A stretch of 64,000 nt of DNA from the NCBI GenBank assembly GCA_902573325.1, contig CACGJH010000003.1, positions 41,592 to 105,591 of the forward strand, in the 5' to 3' direction. Of the stretch, positions 25,805 through 55,522 are shown one piece after another. Numbering within the stretch: the stretch's first letter is position 1; the number at the start of each line of letters is the position of its first letter. Both the position numbers and the translations under genes were made by a program. This DNA is from an uncultured Alphaproteobacteria bacterium (GTDB lineage Bacteria; Pseudomonadota; Alphaproteobacteria; HIMB59; GCA-002718135). The notes beneath the pieces are model-generated. The model was given only the letters and a program-made list of their open reading frames with translations, did no database searches and had not been told where the DNA came from.

Positions 25805-26962
25805 ATGGAAGTTTCAAAAAGAATATTTAATCTTGAAACAGAAACTGCATTCTCTATTCTTGCTAAAGCCAATGATTTAGCAGCCAAAGGTAAAGATATT
25901 ATAAATTTGGGAATTGGACAACCTGATTTTCCAACACCAATTAATATTCAAGAAGCTGCTATTAAAGCAATTAAAGATGGTTATCATGGATATACTCCAT
26001 CAAATGGTATACCTGAATTACGAGAGGCAATTTCAGAATTAGTACTCAACAAATATAAAACAAATATCAAACCAGAAAATGTTTTAATAACTCCAGGAGG
26101 TAAGCCAGTAATTTTCATTTCAGCATTATTATTAGGAAGTGAAGACAGAGAAATAATTTTTCCCGATCCTGGTTTTCCAATTTATAGATCTATGATTAAG
26201 TATAGTGGTGCAAAAGCTGTACCATTACAACTTTCTGAAAAAGATAATTTTGAAATTAATACTGAACAATTAAAAGAATTAATTTCTGATAAAACGAGTT
26301 TGATAATAATAAATAATCCAAACAATCCAACAGGATCATATATGAATAAGAAAAAAATTACTGATCTTGTTAATTTATTAGAGCAGTACCCAAACGTATC
26401 CATTTTAAGTGATGAAATTTATAGTAATATTATTTTTAATAATGAACAAATGCCATCATTATTAGAATACGAAAGTATAAGAGATAGATTAATAGTTCTT
26501 GAGGGATGGAGCAAAACATATTGCATGACTGGATGGAGATTAGGTTGGAGTATATGGCCAGAAAATTTAATTGAACATGCTAACAAAATATGTGTCAATT
26601 ATAATTCCTGCGCTACCTCAATTTCGCAATATGCAGGATTAGAAGCAATAAAAGGTTCTCAGAAAGAAATAACAAAAATTGTTAGTGAATTTCAAAAAAG
26701 AAAAGATTACGTTTTTAATGAATTGAATAGATTGGAAAAAATTTCTTGTTTTGAACCGGGCGGCGCTTTTTATGCCTTCCCAAATATCTCAAAAACTGGA
26801 TTAAGCGGAAGTAAATTTTCAAAAGTAGCACTTCAAGAAAAAGGAGTTGCTTTAGTTCCAGGATCAAGCTTTGGAGATAATGCGAATGATTTTGTTAGAA
26901 TAAGTTTTGCTAATTCTCTAGAAAACATTAAAGAAGCAATTAAAAGATTATCTACAATATGA
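25805..26962 (+). CDS. PLP-dependent class I/II aminotransferase (aspartate aminotransferase-like)
   Basis: LGIGQPDF, NNPNNPTG, SDEIY, SKTYCMTGWRLG (PLP lysine). Confidence 0.92.
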   Translation: MEVSKRIFNLETETAFSILAKANDLAAKGKDIINLGIGQPDFPTPINIQEAAIKAIKDGYHGYTPSNGIPELREAISELVLNKYKTNIKPENVLITPGGKPVIFISALLLGSEDREIIFPDPGFPIYRSMIKYSGAKAVPLQLSEKDNFEINTEQLKELISDKTSLIIINNPNNPTGSYMNKKKITDLVNLLEQYPNVSILSDEIYSNIIFNNEQMPSLLEYESIRDRLIVLEGWSKTYCMTGWRLGWSIWPENLIEHANKICVNYNSCATSISQYAGLEAIKGSQKEITKIVSEFQKRKDYVFNELNRLEKISCFEPGGAFYAFPNISKTGLSGSKFSKVALQEKGVALVPGSSFGDNANDFVRISFANSLENIKEAIKRLSTI

Positions 26963-27300
26963 AAAAAATAGAAGCAATCATCAAACCTTTTAAACTTTCT
27001 CAAGTAAAAGAAGCGCTTCATGAAATTGGCATATCCGGAATGACATTAATTGATGTTAAGGGTTTTGGAAGACAACGAGGATCGACTGGAGGTATGGATG
27101 CTAATGAAGCTTATGATGATGAATTTTTGGCTAAAATGAAATTAGAGGTAATTGTTGAAGATAATCAAGTCGATGAAGTTATAGAATCAATAAAATCTAG
27201 TGCATACTCTGGAAAAATTGGAGATGGTAAGATTTTTGTATCAAATATAGAACAAGTATTAAGAATAAGAACCGGTGAAAAAGACAGTGATGCTGTCTAA
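26959..27300 (+). CDS. glnB: Nitrogen regulatory protein P-II with atypical T-loop
   Basis: MKKIEAIIKPFKL, KGFGRQ, GKIGDGKIFV, RIRTGE; upstream of glnA; ATGA overlap with aminotransferase. Confidence 0.93.
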   Translation: MKKIEAIIKPFKLSQVKEALHEIGISGMTLIDVKGFGRQRGSTGGMDANEAYDDEFLAKMKLEVIVEDNQVDEVIESIKSSAYSGKIGDGKIFVSNIEQVLRIRTGEKDSDAV

Positions 27301-27341
27301 TTTTTCTTTACTTTTATTTAAAAGCAAGTAATTAATCTATA

Positions 27342-27391
27342 ATCGTTCAACTCTTTTAGAGTCGGAAGTAGGCATTGTGCTGAAGGAACGC
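27342..27391 (+). ncRNA. Glutamine riboswitch aptamer 1 (glnA RNA motif)
   Basis: ATCGTTCA-ACTCT ttt AGAGT-CGGAAGTA-GGCA ttg TGCT-GAAG-GAACGC: P1 CGTTC/GAACG, P2 hairpin, AGTA/GAA E-loop, P3; upstream of glnA. Confidence 0.85.
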
Positions 27392-27406
27392 ATGCAAAAG
27401 TTATAA

Positions 27407-27460
27407 ATCGTTCAACCTATTCTAATAGGTCGGAAGTAGGCTTAAAAGCTGAAGGAACGC
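27407..27460 (+). ncRNA. Glutamine riboswitch aptamer 2 (glnA RNA motif)
   Basis: ATCGTTCA-ACCTATT ct AATAGGT-CGGAAGTA-GGCTT aa AAGCT-GAAG-GAACGC; same core as aptamer 1 with different but still paired P2/P3 stems. Confidence 0.85.
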
Positions 27461-27547
27461 GCATCAAAAGCAGATTTCATAACTAGAGCATGATTTAACC
27501 GGGTAACGCTGGATAGCATACCCTTTTGTTGAAGTAAGGAGATAGAT

Positions 27548-28978
27548 ATGAAATTAAAAAGCTCGACTCCAAAAGATTTAATGTCTGAAATTAAAGATAT
27601 GGACATTAAAATGGTTGATATGCGCTTTACTGATATACCAGGAACAACTCAACATTTTACAATACCAATTAAATTTTTAGACGAAGATATATTTTCTGAT
27701 GGACTTGGATTTGATGGATCTTCAGTAAGAGGTTTCCAAGAAATTCAAGACAGTGATATGATTGTTTTGCCAGATGCAACAACTGCATACATTGATCCAT
27801 TTTTTTCAGAAAAAACTTTAGCATTACATTGTAATATTAAAGATCCTGTAACTTTGGTTGATTATAGTCGTGACCCAAGAAATATTGCTAAAAAAGCTGA
27901 GGCATATTTAAAATCATCTGGAATTGGTGACACAGCATTTTTTGGACCAGAAGCAGAATTTTTTGTCTTTAATAATGTTCAGTTTGATTCTGGATCAAAC
28001 TTTGCATTTCACGAAGTTGATTCTGTTGAAGGTACTTGGAATAGTGGCGCAGATGAAAATCCAAACCTAGGTCATAAACCTAGACATAAAGAAGGTTATT
28101 TTCCTTTACCGCCAGTTGATACACTTCAAGATGTTAGAACTGAAATGGTAATGACAATGCAAGACATTGGTCTTACTGTTGAAGCACATCACCATGAAGT
28201 TGCAACAGGTGGACAGTGTGAAATTGATTTAGAATTTTCACCACTGTTAAAGATGGCCGATGATATGATGAAATATAAGTATGTTGTAAAAAATGTTGCC
28301 AGACAACATGGAATGACTGCTACATTTATGCCTAAACCTTTATTTGAAGATAATGGTTCAGGAATGCACGTGCATCAAAGTGTTTGGAAAGACGGTGACA
28401 CATTAATGTATAAAGAAGGTAACTATGCTAACCTAAGTGATTTAGCTCTAAACTATATTGGAGGTATTCTTAAACATGCACCTGCTCTATTAGCTTTTTG
28501 TGCTCCAACAACTAACTCTTATAAAAGATTGGTACCAGGCTTTGAGGCTCCGGTAAACATTGTTTACTCTCAAAGAAATAGAACTGCATCTGTTAGAATT
28601 CCTGCTTATTCTCAAAGCCCTAAAGCAAAAAGAATGGAATTTAGATGTCCAGATCCAAGTGCAAATCCATACTTAGCATTCTCAGCAATGTTAATGGCAG
28701 GATTAGATGGAATTAAAAATAAAATTAATCCTGGTGATCCAACAGATATAAATCTCTATGCTGCTAGCGATGAAGTTTTGTCTAAAATTCAATCTACGCC
28801 TGGATCTTTAGCTGAATCTCTTGAAGCTCTTGAGAAAGATCATGCATTTTTATTAGAGGGTGATGTATTCACCAAAGATGTAATTGAAACTTATATAAGC
28901 TATAAAAAAGAGAGTGAGGTTGACCCTATTAATATTAGACCTCATCCACACGAGTTTAAATTATACTACGACGTGTAG
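27548..28978 (+). CDS. glnA: Glutamine synthetase type I
   Basis: [64 protein letters not shown]; AAGGAG RBS at 27536. Confidence 0.98.
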
Positions 28979-46766: not shown

Positions 46767-48926
46767 TTATCCTACAACTATTTCATCAGTGACTAATGTA
46801 CCATCCTCAACAATCAATCCCATAGCTCCTGAGTCAAGAAGATTATTTTTATCTTCATATTCTAAAACTAATTTATTTTCTAAATATGCAGAAAGAACAT
46901 TATCTTTAATTTTAAGAGATAATTTATAATTTTTAAAATATTCTAAATTAAAATCTATCTCCTTTAAAACACTTACTTCATTTACCACTTTTATTAATTG
47001 AAGTTTGTTTGAAGAATTAATTACCAGTCCATAGTATCTATTTAAACCTTGTACTCTTACAGCAAGGCCGCCGGTAGTAAGTCTTTGCACTGCTATATCT
47101 GCGCTAACAGTATAGTTTTTCCAAGCTTCATTACCCGTAATGATAATCCCTCTCCCACTATCTTTTGTTATTCTAAATGTTCTTGCACCTACTTCCCATT
47201 TATCAACAGCATTTACCCAACTTGATTTCCACATAACAGCTTTTGATGTTTTCACACCCCGTTTATGTTCTCCAATATGTTTTGGTTTATAAAATGAACA
47301 ATCTGGTTCTCCCGTAAATGTTAGATAGTTTATTAATAAGCTGCCAGAATTTGCTTCTTCAGATTCAATAGAAAATCCAACTTGAGTAATTGGATTTCCC
47401 TCAGTTGAAGGAATTTTCCATTTTAAGTTATGTGATTTACCTGGATACAAAATTATTTCCTCTGAATTAATTCTTTCATATTGATCATCTTTCCCAAACA
47501 TATTTATGAAACATTTAACATTGATTGGTTTATCTGAACTTGTAACAAAATTAATTTCAGATTCAATTGTTTGACCAGAATATAATAATGGAGATGAAAT
47601 AAAATTATAACTTTGAAAAAATCTCTCTCTAGCTTTCCCCGTTAATTCGTGTAACTCTTGAGGAAAAAATACATCTACCAATGCTTCAGAGAAGACACCG
47701 GGCGCTACTCTATCAAATTTAATCTCAAGGGCTCTTTTTCCAATCTTACTATCATATTTTATATTTTGTACATGAGTTGAAATGTTCTTATTTTCTTTAT
47801 AGTTAGCTCTCCACCCTTGAACTGAACCAGGCATTTCAAAATGAAATCTAGATCCATTTTTAGGCTGAACAATTTCCTCATTGTTCATTCTTTTTGCAGT
47901 ATTAATTACTTTATAAGCTTCAGTTAATGCGTCTGTCTGTGTTTCGCCACCATTTGCCGTAGGGCAATACATTCTATCTTGGATTGGAGAAAGATAATCT
48001 GGGCCATTATTTAATCCCTCAAGTCCATTTTTAATTCCCATCAGGCAACCAACATTTCCTGAATTACAATCTGTATCTCGACCTGCAGTATTAACAATCA
48101 TTAATGTTTTTTGAAGATCATCATCCCCAAATAATAATGATAGAATGATAATAGCATGGTTAGGTATCATGTGACACTCACCTAAATATTTATCATAATC
48201 ATAGTTTTCAGCTAAAAATTCTCTTGCTTGCATCCAGTCACTATTACCTGATCGTATATTTTGTAATTCTCCAATTACTTTGTAAATCTCAGATGTATTT
48301 GGAATATATTTTTTACTTTCATTAATAATTTTATTAATATCTTTTTCAATAAAAGCTAAAGACTCCATAGCGGCTACCATTTGTGCTCCGTAAATCGCTT
48401 CGCCATCATGACTTACGCTTGCAGCTTTTTTTGCAAGATCAGCGGCTTTTTCTGGATCTCCTGGTGATACTAAAGCCCATCCATCAATAAATATTTGAGC
48501 TCCTATTTGTTGTGCAACAACTTCTCCATTTGTTTCAATAGAACCACTCATTGGAGCGTGAATGCCTGCCTTAAGGTTTTGGAACGCAGTATCCTCAGCT
48601 GAATGACCTCTACCTCCCCACCACAAAACAGTTTTATTTTCTATAAGATTATTTAACCAACTTTGACCAATTTGTTTTGGCGTAATGTTTGGATCATAAT
48701 TATTTTCTCTTAAAGCTCTTAAAAAAGTAAAGGTACCAGTAATATCATCATCTGTTACTACTAAAGGAACATTTAATTTCTCATTTACATAGTAATTAAT
48801 CTCACCTAACTCTTCTAATATTCTTTCATGAGTCCATTGTTCAAAAGGACGTCCTAGATAAACACCAATTAACTTGCCAAGTACCCCTGCATATACTTTT
48901 TCTTCATACACTTTATCTAGTTTCAT
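46767..48926 (-). CDS. ADP-ribosylglycohydrolase-family protein with long C-terminal extension (paralogue D)
   Basis: GK.IGV.LG.PFE, TDDD and DTDCN Mg-binding motifs, SVSHDGE; SD AAGGGGAG. Confidence 0.85.
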   Translation of the reverse strand: MKLDKVYEEKVYAGVLGKLIGVYLGRPFEQWTHERILEELGEINYYVNEKLNVPLVVTDDDITGTFTFLRALRENNYDPNITPKQIGQSWLNNLIENKTVLWWGGRGHSAEDTAFQNLKAGIHAPMSGSIETNGEVVAQQIGAQIFIDGWALVSPGDPEKAADLAKKAASVSHDGEAIYGAQMVAAMESLAFIEKDINKIINESKKYIPNTSEIYKVIGELQNIRSGNSDWMQAREFLAENYDYDKYLGECHMIPNHAIIILSLLFGDDDLQKTLMIVNTAGRDTDCNSGNVGCLMGIKNGLEGLNNGPDYLSPIQDRMYCPTANGGETQTDALTEAYKVINTAKRMNNEEIVQPKNGSRFHFEMPGSVQGWRANYKENKNISTHVQNIKYDSKIGKRALEIKFDRVAPGVFSEALVDVFFPQELHELTGKARERFFQSYNFISSPLLYSGQTIESEINFVTSSDKPINVKCFINMFGKDDQYERINSEEIILYPGKSHNLKWKIPSTEGNPITQVGFSIESEEANSGSLLINYLTFTGEPDCSFYKPKHIGEHKRGVKTSKAVMWKSSWVNAVDKWEVGARTFRITKDSGRGIIITGNEAWKNYTVSADIAVQRLTTGGLAVRVQGLNRYYGLVINSSNKLQLIKVVNEVSVLKEIDFNLEYFKNYKLSLKIKDNVLSAYLENKLVLEYEDKNNLLDSGAMGLIVEDGTLVTDEIVVG

Positions 48927-48950
48927 TATTTCTCCCCTTTTTTTATAAAT

Positions 48951-51113
48951 TTATTCTATAGATATTGAATTACTTTGAATTGCTCCATTTTCAGTTAAAA
49001 ATCCCATCATACCTTCCTCAAATGGATTAGATGAATCTTCTGCTTCAATTAGTAATTGATTATCAACATAACCTTGAAGTTTATTGCCATCTACTTTAAA
49101 TTTTAAATCATATTCTTTAAAATATTCTAAATTAAAATCTATTTCATTAAGTGTTTTTAATTCATATTCCATTTTATTAATCTTGAGTTTATTTTTAGAA
49201 GTTAACTCAAGAGAATAATATCTTTTTAAACCTTGAGACCTAACAATTAATCCAGCGGCAGATGCAAGAGGAATAGATATCTTTGAAGAAATTGAATAAT
49301 CTTTCCATGTCTCACTCCCAGTCATTATGTGACCACGACCTATACCCCTTACTACTTTAAATGATTCATTATGTCGGTATTGCCATTTATCTACATCATT
49401 GACCCAAGCTCTTTTCCATAATTGACCGTAAACCTCCTCTTTATAAAATATGCCTCTTTTATATTCATCTATATGGTCAGGTCTTCTAAAAGTCATTTTT
49501 GGAGTTCCAGAGATATTTAAATAATTAATTAAAATTTTTCCTGAAACATTATCATCAGAATTAATACTAATACCTATCTGTCCTATTGGATTTGCAAAAG
49601 TATCAGGAACAACCCATTCAATTGTATTATTTTCTTTACTCCTTAAATTAAAATCATCAGAAGATAATTTGATTAATTTATCTTCTTCTCCCCAATATTT
49701 AATAAATAAATTAATTCGCAAATCTTTTTCAGATTGAGATATAATTTGTGCTTTGATCTTTTGTCCAGAATATACAATAGGACAAGCGACATAATCATAA
49801 TGAAAATATCTTTGAACTTGATAGCCTTCTAATTTTGTAAACCATTCTGGGAAAAAACTATCTACAAAAATTTCACTTGCAAGACCAAATGATAGATCAT
49901 TAAAACTGACTTGTAACGCTCTCGTTCCATTATCTGATTTATAATCAACATTAGATAAGCTTGTATTTAGATTGTTATCATTTGATTTATCAACCATCCA
50001 TCCTTGTGTAGATGTTTCCATTTCAAAATTATATCTAGCATTATTTTTGATAACCTTGCTTTCAAGACCATTCATTTTTCTTGTTATATTAATAATGTTC
50101 TGACTTTCCAATAAAGCATCAGTCATTGTTTCAGAACCATATGCTGTTGGTAAATAAATGATATCATTTACAGGAGTTATATAGTCTGGACCCTGTTTAA
50201 TTCCTTCTAATCCATTTTTTATTCCTAAGATACAACCAACATTTCCTGAGTTACAATCTGTATCCCATCCTGCTGTATTGACGATCATTAAGGATTTTTG
50301 AAAATCATCATCTCCGAATAACAACGATAAAATAATTAGTGCGTGATTAGGAACGATATGACAATTACCTGGAAATTTACTATACCCATACTTATCTTCA
50401 ATCTTGGATCTAGCTTGTTCCCAATCTAAATTACCAGAGCTCCAATCTTGGATATCAGAAATCAATTTATAAATTATTGAATCATTTGGAACAAATTTTT
50501 TACTGTCCTCTATTATTTTTTTTATATCTTTTTCTATAAATGCATAGGCTTCCATAGCAGCAACAACTTGAGCACCGTAAACAGATTCACCGTCATGACT
50601 AACACTCCCTGCTCTTTTTGCTAGATCAACAGCTTGTTCTGGATCACCTGGAGAAACCATTCCCCAGCCATCAATAAATATTTGCGCTCCGATTTGTTCC
50701 GCAATTACTTTACCATTTTTAGCAATGGAACCACTTTCAGGTGCGTGGATACCTTGTTTAAGATTCATGTATGCGCTTTCTTCAGTTAAAATTCCTTTTC
50801 CTGCCCACGCAAGTACAGTTTGATTTTCTAAACAATAATTTAACCAAGTTTGTCCAATTTGTTTTGGCGAAATATTTTTATCAAAATTAAAATGTTTAAG
50901 AGCATTTATAAATCTAAAAGTACCTGTTAGATCATCATCTGTGACATGTATTGGAAAATCAAGTTTATCATTTACGTAATAATTAATTGGACCAAGTTCT
51001 TCCATGATCCTGTCATAATACCAACCTTCAAATGGTCTACCTAAATAAACACCAATAATTTTTCCTAGGACACCAGCATAAACTTTTTCTTCAAATACTT
51101 TATCTAAATTCAT
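48951..51113 (-). CDS. ADP-ribosylglycohydrolase-family protein with long C-terminal extension (paralogue C)
   Basis: TDDDL, GWDTDCN, SVSHDGE; SD GGAGGGAGG. Confidence 0.85.
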   Translation of the reverse strand: MNLDKVFEEKVYAGVLGKIIGVYLGRPFEGWYYDRIMEELGPINYYVNDKLDFPIHVTDDDLTGTFRFINALKHFNFDKNISPKQIGQTWLNYCLENQTVLAWAGKGILTEESAYMNLKQGIHAPESGSIAKNGKVIAEQIGAQIFIDGWGMVSPGDPEQAVDLAKRAGSVSHDGESVYGAQVVAAMEAYAFIEKDIKKIIEDSKKFVPNDSIIYKLISDIQDWSSGNLDWEQARSKIEDKYGYSKFPGNCHIVPNHALIILSLLFGDDDFQKSLMIVNTAGWDTDCNSGNVGCILGIKNGLEGIKQGPDYITPVNDIIYLPTAYGSETMTDALLESQNIINITRKMNGLESKVIKNNARYNFEMETSTQGWMVDKSNDNNLNTSLSNVDYKSDNGTRALQVSFNDLSFGLASEIFVDSFFPEWFTKLEGYQVQRYFHYDYVACPIVYSGQKIKAQIISQSEKDLRINLFIKYWGEEDKLIKLSSDDFNLRSKENNTIEWVVPDTFANPIGQIGISINSDDNVSGKILINYLNISGTPKMTFRRPDHIDEYKRGIFYKEEVYGQLWKRAWVNDVDKWQYRHNESFKVVRGIGRGHIMTGSETWKDYSISSKISIPLASAAGLIVRSQGLKRYYSLELTSKNKLKINKMEYELKTLNEIDFNLEYFKEYDLKFKVDGNKLQGYVDNQLLIEAEDSSNPFEEGMMGFLTENGAIQSNSISIE

Positions 51114-51139
51114 TTTCCTCCCTCCAAATGAATATTATC

Positions 51140-53344
51140 TCAATTTATAGAAATTTCATCACTAATTATAGTTCCATTTTCAACAATACAGCCTATCATA
51201 CCTTTTTCAAATTGATTTGATTTATCTTCTACCTCAATTAACAATTCATTGTTAATAAAGCCTTTTAAAAAATTATTATCAGCCTCAAAACGCATAAAGT
51301 ATTCCTCAAATGGCTCAAAAGAAAAATCTACTTCTTTTAATATTTTTAGACCATATTCCATTTTATTAATCTGTAATTTATTTGTTGATTTAATTTCTAA
51401 TGAATAATACCTCTGCAAACCCTGAGATCGAATTACTAATCCTCCAGATGATGCTAAACGAAACATTATTTTTGAAGTTACCGAATAATTTTTCCAATCA
51501 GAGGATCCTGTAAATACATGCCCTCTTGATGCATTTTTGATTAACCCAAATGAATTTTTTCCATAACTATACCATTTATCTACATCATTTACCCAAGCCA
51601 ATTTCCATAACTGACCATAATATTTTTCATCATCTGGAATATAAACACCATTTGTTAAAGATTTAATATTATGACTTGTCGTATTTACTTTGTCGTTTTT
51701 AATATGCTCAGGTTTTTTAAAAGTCATCTTAGGTATTCCAGAAATATCAATATAATTTATTAATATTTTACCTGATACTTGTTCATCAGATGCAATACTA
51801 TATCCAAGTTGATTAATGGGATTTGATAATGTATCAGGAATAGTCCATTCTATTTTTTTTGTTCCATTTTCTGAGAAGTAAAATTCCTCCGAGCCTAATT
51901 TAAATAACTTATCTCCTTCACCATAATACTTAATAAATAATTTAATTTTTATATTTTTTTTCGTCTTCGATATAATTTCTGTTTTAATTTTTTGACCTGA
52001 GTAAACTGTAGGACAACCAACAAAACTGTAAACCATAAGCATCATTTCTTGTTGCTCATTCAATCTTGTAAATTCTTCTGGGAAAAATGTATTCACATAT
52101 AATTCACTATTAATTCCTTTTGTAAGATTGTTAAAATTTATCTCTAAAGCTCTTTTGCCAATAGCAGAGATATGTTCACAGTTTTTTAAAAAAGTATTTT
52201 GATTATTGTTATTTGATTTATCAATCATCCATCCTTGCGTAGATGTTTCCATTTCAAAATTATATCGAGCATTGTTTTTAATAGATTGATGTTCAAGGCC
52301 ATCTAATTTTCTTCTAATATTAATTATATTCTGGCTTTCAGTTAATGCATCAGTCATAGTTTCTGAACCACGAGCAGATGTAATATATAAAGTGTCATTA
52401 ACAGGTGTAATAAAATCTGCACCTTTTTGAATGCCCTCTAGACCATTTTTAATACCCATATAACAGCCAACATTTCCAGAGTTACAATCTGTATCCCACC
52501 CTGCTGTATTAACAATCATTAACGTTTTTTGAAAATCATCATCTCCAAATAAAAGAGCTAGAATTATCAAAGCATGATTTGGCACAATATGACAAAATCC
52601 TTGGTATTTGTCATATCCATAGTGTTCTTCAATTTTGAATCTAGCTTGTTCCCAATCTAAATTACCAGAACTCCAATCTTGAATATCTGAAATTAATTTA
52701 TAAATCACAGAATTCTTAGGAATGTAACTTTTACAATGCTCAATTATTTTTTTTGTATCGCTTTCAATAAAAGCCATTGCTTCCATAGAAGCAACCATTT
52801 GAGCACCATAAACAGACTCACCATCATGACTAACACTCCCTGCTCTTTTTGCTAAATCAGATGCAAAGTCTGGATCACCTGCTGCAATCATTCCCCAACC
52901 ATCAATAAATATTTGTGCACCAATTTGCTCTGCAATAATTTTACCATTCCTTTTAATTGATCCACTCTCTGGGGCTTCAATACCTTCTTTTAAATTTAAA
53001 TACGCACTCTCTTCGGTCAATAATCCCTTTCCAGCCCATGCTAAAACAGCCTGATTTTCTAAACAATAATTTAACCACGTATCACCAATTTGCTTTGAAG
53101 TTATATTTCGATTAAAATTAAAGTCTTTAAAAGCTTTAATAAAAGTAAAAGTACCATTTAGATCATCATCTGTAACATGAAGAGGTAAATTTAATTTGTC
53201 GTTTACGTAATAATAAATAGGCCCAAGTTCTTTCATTATTTTATCATAGGGCCAACCCTCAAATGGTCTTCCTAAATAAACTCCAATAATTTTTCCTAAG
53301 ACACCAGCATAAACTTTCTTTTCAAAATTATTATCTAATTTCAT
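51140..53344 (-). CDS. ADP-ribosylglycohydrolase-family protein with long C-terminal extension (paralogue B)
   Basis: TDDDL, GWDTDCN, SVSHDGE. Confidence 0.85.
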   Translation of the reverse strand: MKLDNNFEKKVYAGVLGKIIGVYLGRPFEGWPYDKIMKELGPIYYYVNDKLNLPLHVTDDDLNGTFTFIKAFKDFNFNRNITSKQIGDTWLNYCLENQAVLAWAGKGLLTEESAYLNLKEGIEAPESGSIKRNGKIIAEQIGAQIFIDGWGMIAAGDPDFASDLAKRAGSVSHDGESVYGAQMVASMEAMAFIESDTKKIIEHCKSYIPKNSVIYKLISDIQDWSSGNLDWEQARFKIEEHYGYDKYQGFCHIVPNHALIILALLFGDDDFQKTLMIVNTAGWDTDCNSGNVGCYMGIKNGLEGIQKGADFITPVNDTLYITSARGSETMTDALTESQNIINIRRKLDGLEHQSIKNNARYNFEMETSTQGWMIDKSNNNNQNTFLKNCEHISAIGKRALEINFNNLTKGINSELYVNTFFPEEFTRLNEQQEMMLMVYSFVGCPTVYSGQKIKTEIISKTKKNIKIKLFIKYYGEGDKLFKLGSEEFYFSENGTKKIEWTIPDTLSNPINQLGYSIASDEQVSGKILINYIDISGIPKMTFKKPEHIKNDKVNTTSHNIKSLTNGVYIPDDEKYYGQLWKLAWVNDVDKWYSYGKNSFGLIKNASRGHVFTGSSDWKNYSVTSKIMFRLASSGGLVIRSQGLQRYYSLEIKSTNKLQINKMEYGLKILKEVDFSFEPFEEYFMRFEADNNFLKGFINNELLIEVEDKSNQFEKGMIGCIVENGTIISDEISIN

Positions 53345-53356
53345 ACTCTTATATTT

Positions 53357-55522
53357 TTACTCTATGCTTATTGAATTGGATGATAATGTTCCATCTTGTG
53401 TAACAAAACCTATCATACCTGTTTCAAAAGAATTATCTTTATCGTGTGTTTCAATTAATAACTTATCATCAACATAACCCAATAATTTATTTCCATTCAC
53501 TTCAAATTTTAATTCATATTCCTTATAAAACTCAAAGTTAAAATCGATTTCTTTTAATGTTTCTATTTCATAAAACATTTTATTAATCTGCAGTTTATTA
53601 TTGGAAGTAAGTTCTAAAGAGTAATATCGCTTTACTCCTTGAGATCTAATTATTAATCCTCCAGCTGATGCTAATGGAAAGTTCACTTTTGAAGTAACGG
53701 TGTAATCTTTCCAGGAAGATGATCCTTGTAAAATATGACCTCTACCAACTCCATTGATAATTTTAAATGACTCTAACCACCTATATTGCCATTTATCGAT
53801 ATCATTTACCCATGCTCTTTTCCATAATTGACCATAAAATTCTTGGTTAAAAAAATATCCATTTTTTGATGCATTTTCTATGTGTTCAGGTCTTTTAAAT
53901 GTAACTTTTGGTGTGCCCGTAATATCAAGAAAATTAATTAGTAACTTTCCTGAAGTATTAACATCTGCTGATATGACAAATCCAATTTGTCCAATTGGAT
54001 TTGCATGTGTATCTGGAACTATCCATTCAATTGATTTTACTTCATTATTTGAAAGCTCATATTCTTCAGCATCTATTTGTTTTAATTTATCTTCTTCACC
54101 CCAATATTTTATAAATAAAGTAACTTTAATATTATTTTTACTTTTTGAAATAATTTCAGTTTTAATCTTTTGTCCACTATGGACAATTGGACATCCAACA
54201 AAGTCATAGTGAAAAAATTTCTGCCGCTGAGATCCTTTTAGTTCAGTAAACCAGTCTGGAAAAAATGTATCAACATAGGCAACACTTGAATGCCCGATTG
54301 ACAAATTAGAAAAGTCAATTTCTAATGCTCTTTCACCAATCTTGGTTTCATAAGGAACATTAGTGATTGTAGTATTTAAATTATTATCATTAGTCTTATT
54401 AATTTTCCAAGCTTGAGTAGAGCCTGGCATTTCAAAATTATATCTTGCATTTTCTTTTACTATCTTGTTTTCCATACCATTAATTCGTCTAGCAATATTA
54501 ACAATATTTTGACTTTCTCTTAATGCGTCAGTCATCGTTTCAGCACCATTACTTGTTGGAAGAAAAATTGTATCATTAACTGGTGTAATATAGTCGGGTC
54601 CGTCTTTAATACTCTCTAATCCATTTTTAATTCCAAGAAAACATCCGACATTTCCTGAATTACAATCTGTGTCCCAACCTGAAGTATTTACAATCATTAA
54701 GGATTTTTGAAAGTTATCATCTCCAAATAGTAATGCTAAAATAATTAATGCATGATTTGGTACAATATGAACGCCGCCTATAAATTTTTCATAACCATAA
54801 ATATCATCTATTTTTTCTCTTGCTTGTTCCCAGTCTAGATTACCAGAACTCCAATCTTGAATATCAGATATAAGTTTAAAAATTGTTGAATCTTTAGGGA
54901 TATATCTTTTGCAATGCTCAATAATTTTTTTTGTATCTTTTTCTATAAACGCCATTGCTTCCATTGCAGCAACAACTTGAGCAGCATAAACAGATTCACC
55001 ATCATGACTTACACTTCCAGCTTTTTTTGCAAAATCAGCTGCTTGATCTGGATCACCTGGCGAAACTAATCCCCATCCATCAATAAATATTTGAGCACCT
55101 ATTTGCTCAGCAACAATTCGACCATTTGTTTTTATAGAACCACTATCTGGAGCATGAATACCTTGTTTAAGATTTTGATAAGCGGTATCTTCTGATGATG
55201 TTCCTTTACCACCCCACCATAAAACAGCTTGGTTTTCCAAACAATAATTTAACCATGTTTGACCAATTTGTTTAGAAGAAATATTTTTATTAAAATTAAA
55301 ATCTTTTAGAGCGTTGATGAATCTAAACGTTCCAGTCAAATCATCATCGGTGATTTGAACAGGCATATTTAATTTATCATTTACATAATAATTAATTGGG
55401 CCTAATTCTTTTATAATTCTATCATACCACCAACCCTCAAAAGGTCTGCCAAGATAGACACCTATGATTTTACCTAAAACTCCTGAATATACTTTCTCCT
55501 CATATTCTTTGTTAAGTTCCAT
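53357..55522 (-). CDS. ADP-ribosylglycohydrolase-family protein with long C-terminal extension (paralogue A)
   Basis: TDDDL, GWDTDCN, SVSHDGE; SD GGGAGG. Confidence 0.85.
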   Translation of the reverse strand: MELNKEYEEKVYSGVLGKIIGVYLGRPFEGWWYDRIIKELGPINYYVNDKLNMPVQITDDDLTGTFRFINALKDFNFNKNISSKQIGQTWLNYCLENQAVLWWGGKGTSSEDTAYQNLKQGIHAPDSGSIKTNGRIVAEQIGAQIFIDGWGLVSPGDPDQAADFAKKAGSVSHDGESVYAAQVVAAMEAMAFIEKDTKKIIEHCKRYIPKDSTIFKLISDIQDWSSGNLDWEQAREKIDDIYGYEKFIGGVHIVPNHALIILALLFGDDNFQKSLMIVNTSGWDTDCNSGNVGCFLGIKNGLESIKDGPDYITPVNDTIFLPTSNGAETMTDALRESQNIVNIARRINGMENKIVKENARYNFEMPGSTQAWKINKTNDNNLNTTITNVPYETKIGERALEIDFSNLSIGHSSVAYVDTFFPDWFTELKGSQRQKFFHYDFVGCPIVHSGQKIKTEIISKSKNNIKVTLFIKYWGEEDKLKQIDAEEYELSNNEVKSIEWIVPDTHANPIGQIGFVISADVNTSGKLLINFLDITGTPKVTFKRPEHIENASKNGYFFNQEFYGQLWKRAWVNDIDKWQYRWLESFKIINGVGRGHILQGSSSWKDYTVTSKVNFPLASAGGLIIRSQGVKRYYSLELTSNNKLQINKMFYEIETLKEIDFNFEFYKEYELKFEVNGNKLLGYVDDKLLIETHDKDNSFETGMIGFVTQDGTLSSNSISIE

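Follow-up and report, generated by a model that had tools for sequence, protein, structure and literature searches.

Type-1 glutamine riboswitches, or glnA RNAs (Rfam RF01739), are an aptamer class in which binding of glutamine recruits a linchpin cytidine into a G23–C60 pair (PMC11477058, PMC6212724). In the 5′ UTR of Synechocystis gifB, the gene for the glutamine synthetase (GS) inhibitor IF17, the linchpin C starts a helix that blocks the ribosome-binding site (RBS), and glutamine lowers GS activity (PMC6212724). Tandem glnA RNAs and their nitrogen-gene targets were described by Weinberg and colleagues in 2010 (PMC2864571), and marine-metagenome members without a host, tandems among them, lie upstream of genes for GS, ammonium transporters, GOGAT and PII (PMC2864571, PMC6212724). 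Table S2 of Klähn and colleagues (2018) counts the targets in environmental DNA as Ammonium_transp 223, Gln-synt_C 132 and CP_ATPgrasp_2 38, and that article states that the host and the effect of binding are unknown for the marine-metagenome glnA-linked riboswitches (PMC6212724). The available portions of PMC2864571 and PMC6212724 describe no expression platform for these metagenome RNAs. A non-cyanobacterial context is already in print in passing, since the accessible text of two further articles mentions RF01739 in deletions of SAR86 MAGs (PMC12379486) and in marine phages of heterotrophs (PMC9004378).

Two other described systems are close to the locus studied here. In strain HIMB59, a GlnD–PII–GlnE cascade has the same input, glutamine, the same outputs, GS and AmtB, and a tig-glnB-glnA locus (PMC3870248); our family differs in having RNA in place of protein modification, lacking GlnD and GlnE and carrying a rewritten PII T-loop. 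Pelagibacter (SAR11) is likewise a streamlined marine alphaproteobacterium without GlnD, for which RNA control of amt has been proposed, but its amt/amtB leader RNAs, linked to a PII-independent response, belong to other motifs of unknown ligand (PMC3870248), whereas here an aptamer class of known ligand is used and also stands before glnA. With gifB the locus shares the aptamer class, a linchpin C that opens a regulatory helix and, as predicted here, a lowering of GS activity by glutamine. It differs in being a tandem in a heterotrophic alphaproteobacterium that heads glnA, with sister copies preceding amtB twice and a CP-ATP-grasp operon once, instead of a GS inhibitor gene (PMC6212724). It also differs in that its linchpin strand is predicted to pair with a distant anti-RBS box and not with the RBS itself, so that the predicted outcome is OFF, not ON.

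Our analysis started from a 64,000-nucleotide (nt) stretch of DNA (hereafter, the window) from a member of the family GCA-002718135 in the order HIMB59. On its forward strand, the spacer between glnB (26959–27300) and glnA (27548–28978) contains two matches to the RF01739 covariance model, aptamer 1 at 27342–27394 (62.1 bits, E 2.5e-11) and aptamer 2 at 27407–27463 (62.0 bits, E 2.7e-11), where the gathering score is 35; both span model positions 1–53, and glnA starts 84 nt downstream of aptamer 2. In aptamer 1, P1 is formed by 27344–27348 and 27386–27390, J2/3 (CGGAAGUA) occupies 27363–27370 and the linchpin C is 27391; the linchpin C of aptamer 2 is 27460. In the model alignment, all eight copies in the genome form a three-stem junction in which P1 is CGUUC/GAACG while P2 and P3 vary but stay paired. 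Within the window, P2 reads ACUCU/AGAGU in one unit and ACCUAU/AUAGGU in the other, both paired, and the P3 closing pair is A–U in one and U–A in the other. The exact 23-nt core, observed eight times, has a chance expectation of about 1.6e-6 per genome, and J2/3 CGGAAGUA and the C after P1, the linchpin partners, show no variation in either aptamer across 44 aligned leaders. No match to the type-2 glutamine riboswitch (RF01704) reaches its gathering score within the window. The spacer units are members of the known type-1 class and, judged by their sequence, almost certainly genuine glutamine binders. The original prediction, made from the letters alone, had thus been right about the two units and their identical cores, about their differing yet paired P2 and P3 stems and about a tandem glutamine riboswitch, which it proposed to check with the Rfam model, and its assignment of the motif to a heterotrophic marine alphaproteobacterial host is supported. 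The GCAT(G)CAAAAG linker that it saw after both units is present in the glnA locus but is not general, because amtB and CP-ATP-grasp tandems carry CGGATCTT after aptamer 2. The functional element also reaches further downstream than it had placed it, up to the glnA start at 27548–27555.

The tandem is one of four. The genome (G000; 1.47 Mb, 89.7% complete) carries its eight aptamers as tandems before glnA, before two ammonium transporter (amtB) genes (contig C17, 36–160 and 2076–2198) and before a circularly permuted (CP) ATP-grasp gene and its operon (contig C15, 26300–26422), together handled as L001–L008; the original prediction described the glnA tandem, which is real, and overlooked the other three and the downstream platform. 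Genes of these kinds serve nitrogen acquisition, and since all four targets do so, repression by glutamine makes physiological sense. A 124-amino acid (aa) open reading frame (ORF) without a Pfam match lies between the two C17 amtB genes, and one likewise lies behind amtB in L142; the two ORFs after the CP-ATP-grasp gene presumably correspond to alpha-E and transglutaminase partners. Two further GS-family genes in the genome have no aptamer and, from their scores, appear to be non-assimilatory paralogs. CP-ATP-grasp leaders (G000 C15, L010, L020, L032, L102 and others) have an SD-like GAAAGG in a hairpin loop and a leader ORF of 16–22 codons, unconserved in sequence, that ends at or near the main start, an arrangement whose sequence suggests translational coupling.

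The order HIMB59 is split into f_HIMB59 and f_GCA002718135, the latter with about 29% GC and 1.7 Mb in the accessible part of PMC10734472. In our set, GlnA and PII from a genome of the first family (G037) match exactly the proteins named ‘alpha proteobacterium HIMB59’, and one GlnA of the second carries the name ‘MarineAlpha5_Bin12’. Family GCA-002718135 is probably AEGEAN-169 subclade II, because the available text of PMC10308909 assigns both AEGEAN-169 isolates to subclade I; the words ‘glutamine’ and ‘riboswitch’ do not occur in that article. Scoring 42 candidates per genome in genomes at least 70% complete, we found RF01739 in 70 of 72 genomes of GCA-002718135, spanning 7 of its 8 genera, versus 0 of 49 HIMB59-family genomes, and a smaller census gave 35/36 versus 0/24. 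The two genomes without the riboswitch (G015 and G112) are no counterexamples, because the GSI-beta glnA was likewise not found in them. An even draw of 150 other alphaproteobacterial genomes had RF01739 in one, as a single aptamer before a CP-ATP-grasp-like gene. GCA-002718135 is very probably a major source of the hostless metagenome reads, which share its tandem arrangement and target classes.

The loss of the protein cascade follows the same boundary. In genomes with a completeness of 80% or more, GlnD turned up in 0 of 45 members of GCA-002718135 versus 34 of 34 of the HIMB59 family, and GlnE in 0 of 45 versus 31 of 34, a contrast that counts as a single evolutionary event between two families. 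RpoN was found in none of 80 genomes of the order at the same completeness, including 34 riboswitch-free genomes of the HIMB59 family. NtrC was found above the cut-off in none of 33 genomes of either family, with a model that also misses Caulobacter NtrC and weak matches that are NtrX-like. The original prediction had proposed that RNA sensing replaces NtrBC/sigma-54 control of glnA and suggested looking for the corresponding genes. We reject that replacement, since RpoN is absent from both families alike, and for the same reason the lack of a sigma-54 promoter in the spacer is uninformative. The gene check gave a split answer: rpoN, glnD and glnE have no match in the window's own genome, and across the order it is the loss of GlnD and GlnE that tracks the riboswitch, while sigma-54 does not. 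The RNA therefore appears to stand in for the glutamine sensing of GlnD and GlnE.

The proteins encoded at the locus are altered as well. The glnB product (Pfam P-II, 114.9 bits) has the acidic T-loop RQRGSTGGMDANEAYDDEF in place of RQKGHTELYRGAEYVVDF, and across 17 variants from the family the T-loop is rewritten, variable and fast-changing, whereas the HIMB59 family and other alphaproteobacteria keep the canonical one. No second PII (glnK) was found in G000 or in a further genome (G093), and glnB is missing from the locus in two genera of the family (L136, L138). The syntenic locus of the HIMB59 family has a 44-nt glnB–glnA spacer, a canonical PII T-loop and an adjoining glnE, in agreement with the available text of PMC3870248. 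A terminator-like hairpin with a T-run at the end of glnB (27282–27308, forward strand; one found versus 0.9 expected in shuffles) may separate glnB from the glnA leader. The glnA gene encodes a type I (GSI-beta) GS (TIGR00653, 665 bits, cut-off 429) with a degenerate adenylylation loop (DINLYAAS in the window), as in 9 of 10 rows from the family; the PII T-loop and the GS adenylylation loop are both degenerate in GCA-002718135 only. Identity of the window GlnA is 74–100% within the family, 59–62% to the HIMB59 family, 57–62% to cyanobacterial matches and 49–58% to other alphaproteobacterial matches, with a single one at 65%. In a quick 45-row tree with SH-aLRT support only, 14 of 27 class loci and few phyla, the GlnA of both families (window 27548–28978; L144–L146 and L151) falls outside the canonical alphaproteobacterial GSI clade and neither nests in cyanobacteria, the tree giving no firm branching between the two families. 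Because GlnA does not nest in cyanobacteria, the idea that riboswitch and glnA arrived together in a cyanobacterial cassette is unsupported. A homolog search and member look-ups yielded no named donor; of the named relatives that came up, the nearest was GlnA from a Microvirga plasmid, with 64% identity.

Between aptamer 1 and the glnA start lies a conserved expression platform, situated outside the Rfam model. Leaders with this wiring, denoted type A, are ordered as aptamer 1, a CAUGC-loop-GUUAU linker, aptamer 2, spacer, box, hairpin and RBS. In the window, all on the forward strand, the linker at 27391–27404 (CAUGC, a 3-nt loop and AGUUAU) starts at the aptamer 1 linchpin C and forms the 5′ strand of a predicted helix A, in which 27391–27395 pair with 27488–27492 and 27399–27404 with 27479–27484; aptamer 2 lies within its loop. 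The 3′ strand belongs to the switch box GAUUUCAUAACUAGAGCAUGA (27473–27493), nearly invariant in the 44 aligned leaders, whose 5′ half is also the anti-start-codon strand of a predicted helix B, with 9 base pairs between 27473–27481 and the start region UAUGAAAUU (27547–27555), which together with the Shine–Dalgarno (SD) sequence AAGGAG (27536–27541) occupies 27536–27555. A spacer hairpin of variable sequence (27494–27533) places the box beside the RBS; its z-score is below −2 in 21 of 24 glnA, 19 of 28 amtB and 9 of 12 CP-ATP-grasp leaders. An upstream ORF beginning at the AUG conserved in the box was considered and rejected, since frames and lengths are inconsistent, from two codons to an in-frame fusion.

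Helix A is maintained across the type-A leaders. The 74 leaders compared, of which orthologous ones are not independent of one another, contain 25 distinct pairings of linker and box; the outer five pairs of the helix are nearly invariant and form in all 25, and its inner six mostly form, with pairs i1, i5 and i6 broken in 2, 3 and 2 combinations. Pairs were counted on anchored segments because MAFFT misregistered the inner helix of glnA versus amtB leaders. The changes seen are one-sided and compatible (A–U to G–U, U–A to U–G), none of the pairs has a two-sided compensatory change in the 25 combinations, and 20 of them have a symmetric internal loop, 3×3 in glnA and 2×2 in amtB leaders.

We consider it likely, with a probability of about 0.6, that the tandem heading glnA turns translation off in response to glutamine and so provides glutamine sensing to a family lacking GlnD and GlnE. 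When glutamine is scarce, the linker beginning at the aptamer 1 linchpin C (27391, the C60 equivalent) would pair with the box as helix A (5 + 6 base pairs), which in the folding models leaves the start codon free, so that GS would be produced. When glutamine binds, the C would be drawn into the G23–C60 linchpin and helix A weakened; the freed 5′ half of the box, brought near by the spacer hairpin, could then pair with UAUGAAAU in glnA, or with AUGGAG at the SD of amtB, and block initiation. Such a design would amount to the cyanobacterial gifB mechanism with one extra relay that inverts its sign. The bases after the linchpin C do not pair directly with the RBS, as they do in gifB; they are predicted to pair with the box instead. 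Aptamer 2 would probably sharpen the response or loosen the box from inside the loop, and helix A as predicted would physically join both aptamers. A net OFF effect of glutamine is very probable; that it comes about through the exchange of helices A and B is a prediction from the folding models to which we give appreciably less weight, while still favouring it.

Folding calculations bear directly on this exchange. With both aptamer cores enforced and a blocked base as a crude proxy for ligand binding, the window leader at 25 °C gives helix A 0.91 and helix B 0.09 when the aptamer 1 linchpin C is free, and 0.03 and 0.97 when it is blocked; the flip has the same sign from 10 to 37 °C. The model is fragile, however: folded without constraints, the window leader gives helix B 0.96 with misfolded aptamers. 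With the C blocked, opening the initiation region of glnA leaders costs 2.3 kcal/mol more on average. Among 60 leaders, the effect exceeds 0.5 kcal/mol in 21 of 23 glnA, 1 of 25 amtB and 5 of 12 CP-ATP-grasp leaders, and the models thus predict OFF for glnA and barely for amtB. Blocking the whole linker has an effect greater than 1 in 22 of 23, 12 of 25 and 10 of 12 leaders, respectively. The effect is gone when linker and box are blocked together, and blocking the C of aptamer 2 has no effect in any leader class. Real tails average 2.07 kcal/mol versus 0.75 for shuffled ones (12 leaders, 5 shuffles each), with 32% of shuffles above 1 kcal/mol. As modelled, the OFF mechanism is well motivated for glnA but less so, and weakly, for the remaining targets.

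Helix A stays at about 0.9–1.0 in most amtB leaders despite a blocked linchpin C, and this would suit a different, unlikely arrangement in which the two aptamers build one composite fold with helix A as its constitutive scaffold, and OFF arises through another exchange. The anti-RBS AUUUCC could, for example, be held by J2/3 (GGAAGU) in its ligand-free state, or by the GGA that follows aptamer 2, until glutamine brings order to that element. The complementarity of AUUUCC to GGAAGU is directly visible in the sequence, amtB leaders have a predicted GGA/UCC stem behind aptamer 2, and aptamer 2 would be handed a job. However, helices A and B share bases (AUA[A/G]), so a full helix B needs helix A at least partly open, and the J2/3 pairing would be a putative pseudoknot.

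The match between box and start region differs by target class. The UAUGAAAU motif occurs in 24 of 24 distinct glnA leaders versus 20 of 1,178 ORF starts genome-wide, with residue 3 of glnA being Leu, Tyr or Phe and every codon for it beginning with U, and AUGGAG occurs in 30 of 31 amtB-type leaders versus 8 of 70 GGAG sites. The sole glnA leader with an amtB-type box (L136) has its target switched to UAUGGAG, with the start AUG UAU. When boxes and targets are swapped between classes, duplex energies favour the cognate pairing for glnA (−9.6 versus −8.2) and amtB (−10.8 versus −8.0), but not for CP-ATP-grasp; the anti-RBS match is within the top 5% of genome start regions in 15 of 19 amtB, 7 of 21 glnA and 1 of 12 CP-ATP-grasp leaders. 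Both this class-matched complementarity and the joint switch in L136 would go unexplained if control acted on the mRNA, by glutamine-dependent exposure of an AU-rich RNase site or by Rho-dependent termination, with the spacer hairpin shielding a processed 5′ end. We hold that scheme to be rather less probable still, although it could draw on the AU-rich stretch after aptamer 2 in amtB and CP-ATP-grasp leaders, on a sequence-variable hairpin conserved in position and on the weak RBS pairing of the CP-ATP-grasp class; decay could also merely result from a block of translation.

Also against the model, helix A has a probability of 0.00 in a transcript ending at 27559, with the C blocked or free. 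Helix A is the predicted fold until the RBS is transcribed, which suits a reversible translational switch. Intrinsic attenuation, with the hairpin at 27494–27533 and the subsequent U-rich stretch as a glutamine-dependent terminator, is improbable: the window leader does have a hairpin that contains GC pairs and runs into UUUUGUU, and the U-run is longer in some glnA orthologs (L034, L141), but the hairpin is absent from the output of a terminator scan, the U-run pairs back into its lower stem, amtB and CP-ATP-grasp leaders have no U-tract, and no anti-terminator overlap was seen. An ON switch like that of gifB, with more GS, AmtB and CP-ATP-grasp protein at high glutamine, is very improbable, for although ON is the only experimentally tested direction for this aptamer class in the available text of PMC6212724 and bound P1 helices could stack on and stabilize helix A, it makes little physiological sense for genes of ammonium uptake and assimilation, and neither linchpin C is followed here by bases complementary to the RBS, unlike in the type-B tandems described below.

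The wiring assigned here to a translational OFF switch is also found outside the order. When species genomes were scanned for the tandem pattern, at least 126 loci were obtained, with titles for 80; after dropping duplicates and loci without two exact aptamers and adding three contigs of G000, at least 120 distinct tandems were kept. Type A accounts for at least 92, mostly titled uncultured Alphaproteobacteria and in a few cases SAR116 or Rhodobacterales. Type B comprises at least 17 (L013, L019, L024, L054, L055, L060, L064, L065, L080, L083, L090, L092, L108, L119, L123, L129 and L133), with a short linker and with bases from the aptamer 2 linchpin C pairing directly with the SD of a 30–54-aa basic ORF, a pairing with one compensated U–A to C–G change. 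The encoded peptides have net charges of +4 to +10 and belong to several unrelated families (no Pfam family above cut-off in 9 of 9 tested); the wiring is like that of the cyanobacterial ON switch, and the hosts, titled SAR86, Gammaproteobacteria, Betaproteobacteria or Rhodospirillaceae, mostly keep GlnD. Type C comprises at least 11 tandems titled SAR86 or Gammaproteobacteria (L017, L030, L038, L042, L069, L081, L087, L094, L112, L115 and L127), with a different, hairpin-rich leader, three aptamers at two loci and downstream genes that we take to be GSII-like and porin-like. Among 28 hosts of unstated completeness, GlnD is present in 1 of 10 with type A, 0 of 7 with type C, 9 of 10 with type B (one of them split) and 0 of 1 cyanobacterium.

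At even odds, we suggest that family GCA-002718135 swapped GlnD–PII–GlnE for an RNA-only glutamine regulon on a sign-inverting platform, gated by the aptamer 1 linchpin C through an anti-anti-RBS helix, as one of three wirings in streamlined marine heterotrophs: types A and C would turn assimilation genes OFF in hosts lacking GlnD, and type B would directly turn ON small basic peptides in hosts that retain it. Known before were the motif and its targets from hostless metagenome reads; new are the family identified as host, the regulon of four operons, the loss of GlnD and GlnE in mirror image to the riboswitch and the predicted sign-inverting platform. In the literature searched, mostly without subscription titles, no paper was found that places the riboswitch in GCA-002718135 or describes the platform, and the switch, if confirmed, would be the first OFF-type glutamine riboswitch that we found described there. 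The sister families would offer an example of a protein signalling cascade exchanged for RNA during genome streamlining, one that bears on the control of ammonium uptake in a widespread and abundant bacterioplankton clade. With a named host family, a four-operon regulon and a specific 240-nt RNA with base-level predictions, the proposal is assayable without culturing, and a compact ligand-to-OFF inverter would be a useful part for synthetic biology.

Parts of the stretch are present in 14 RNA runs. In two of the four runs examined, RNA contigs, which reveal neither starts, ends, strand, level nor a single transcript, span aptamer 2 into the glnA coding region (X1, 27389–27573; X4, 27369–27609); among the contigs listed for these four runs none reaches from glnB to aptamer 1, and glnB itself is thinly covered. 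A control stretch gave 11–28 records per run versus 388–516, in runs that were picked using the glnA stretch, so the numbers do not rank expression. A consensus scan of the spacer found no leader promoter, and fewer sites than in shuffles.

Three observations stand apart from the glnA locus. The type-A amtB cassette also occurs at L009, L018 and L063, in larger genomes of 1.9–2.2 Mb titled SAR116 or Rhodobacterales with another gene neighbourhood, and one of these hosts keeps GlnD; the riboswitch–amtB unit has possibly spread horizontally. A single aptamer at L155 (G172:C4:503707–503757), in another alphaproteobacterial family with a canonical PII, has a leader containing CUCUUUCC, which is complementary both to the SD and to the J2/3 of its own aptamer. 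Elsewhere in the window, at 46767–55522, four consecutive minus-strand ORFs of 719–734 aa are likely to form an array of paralogs.
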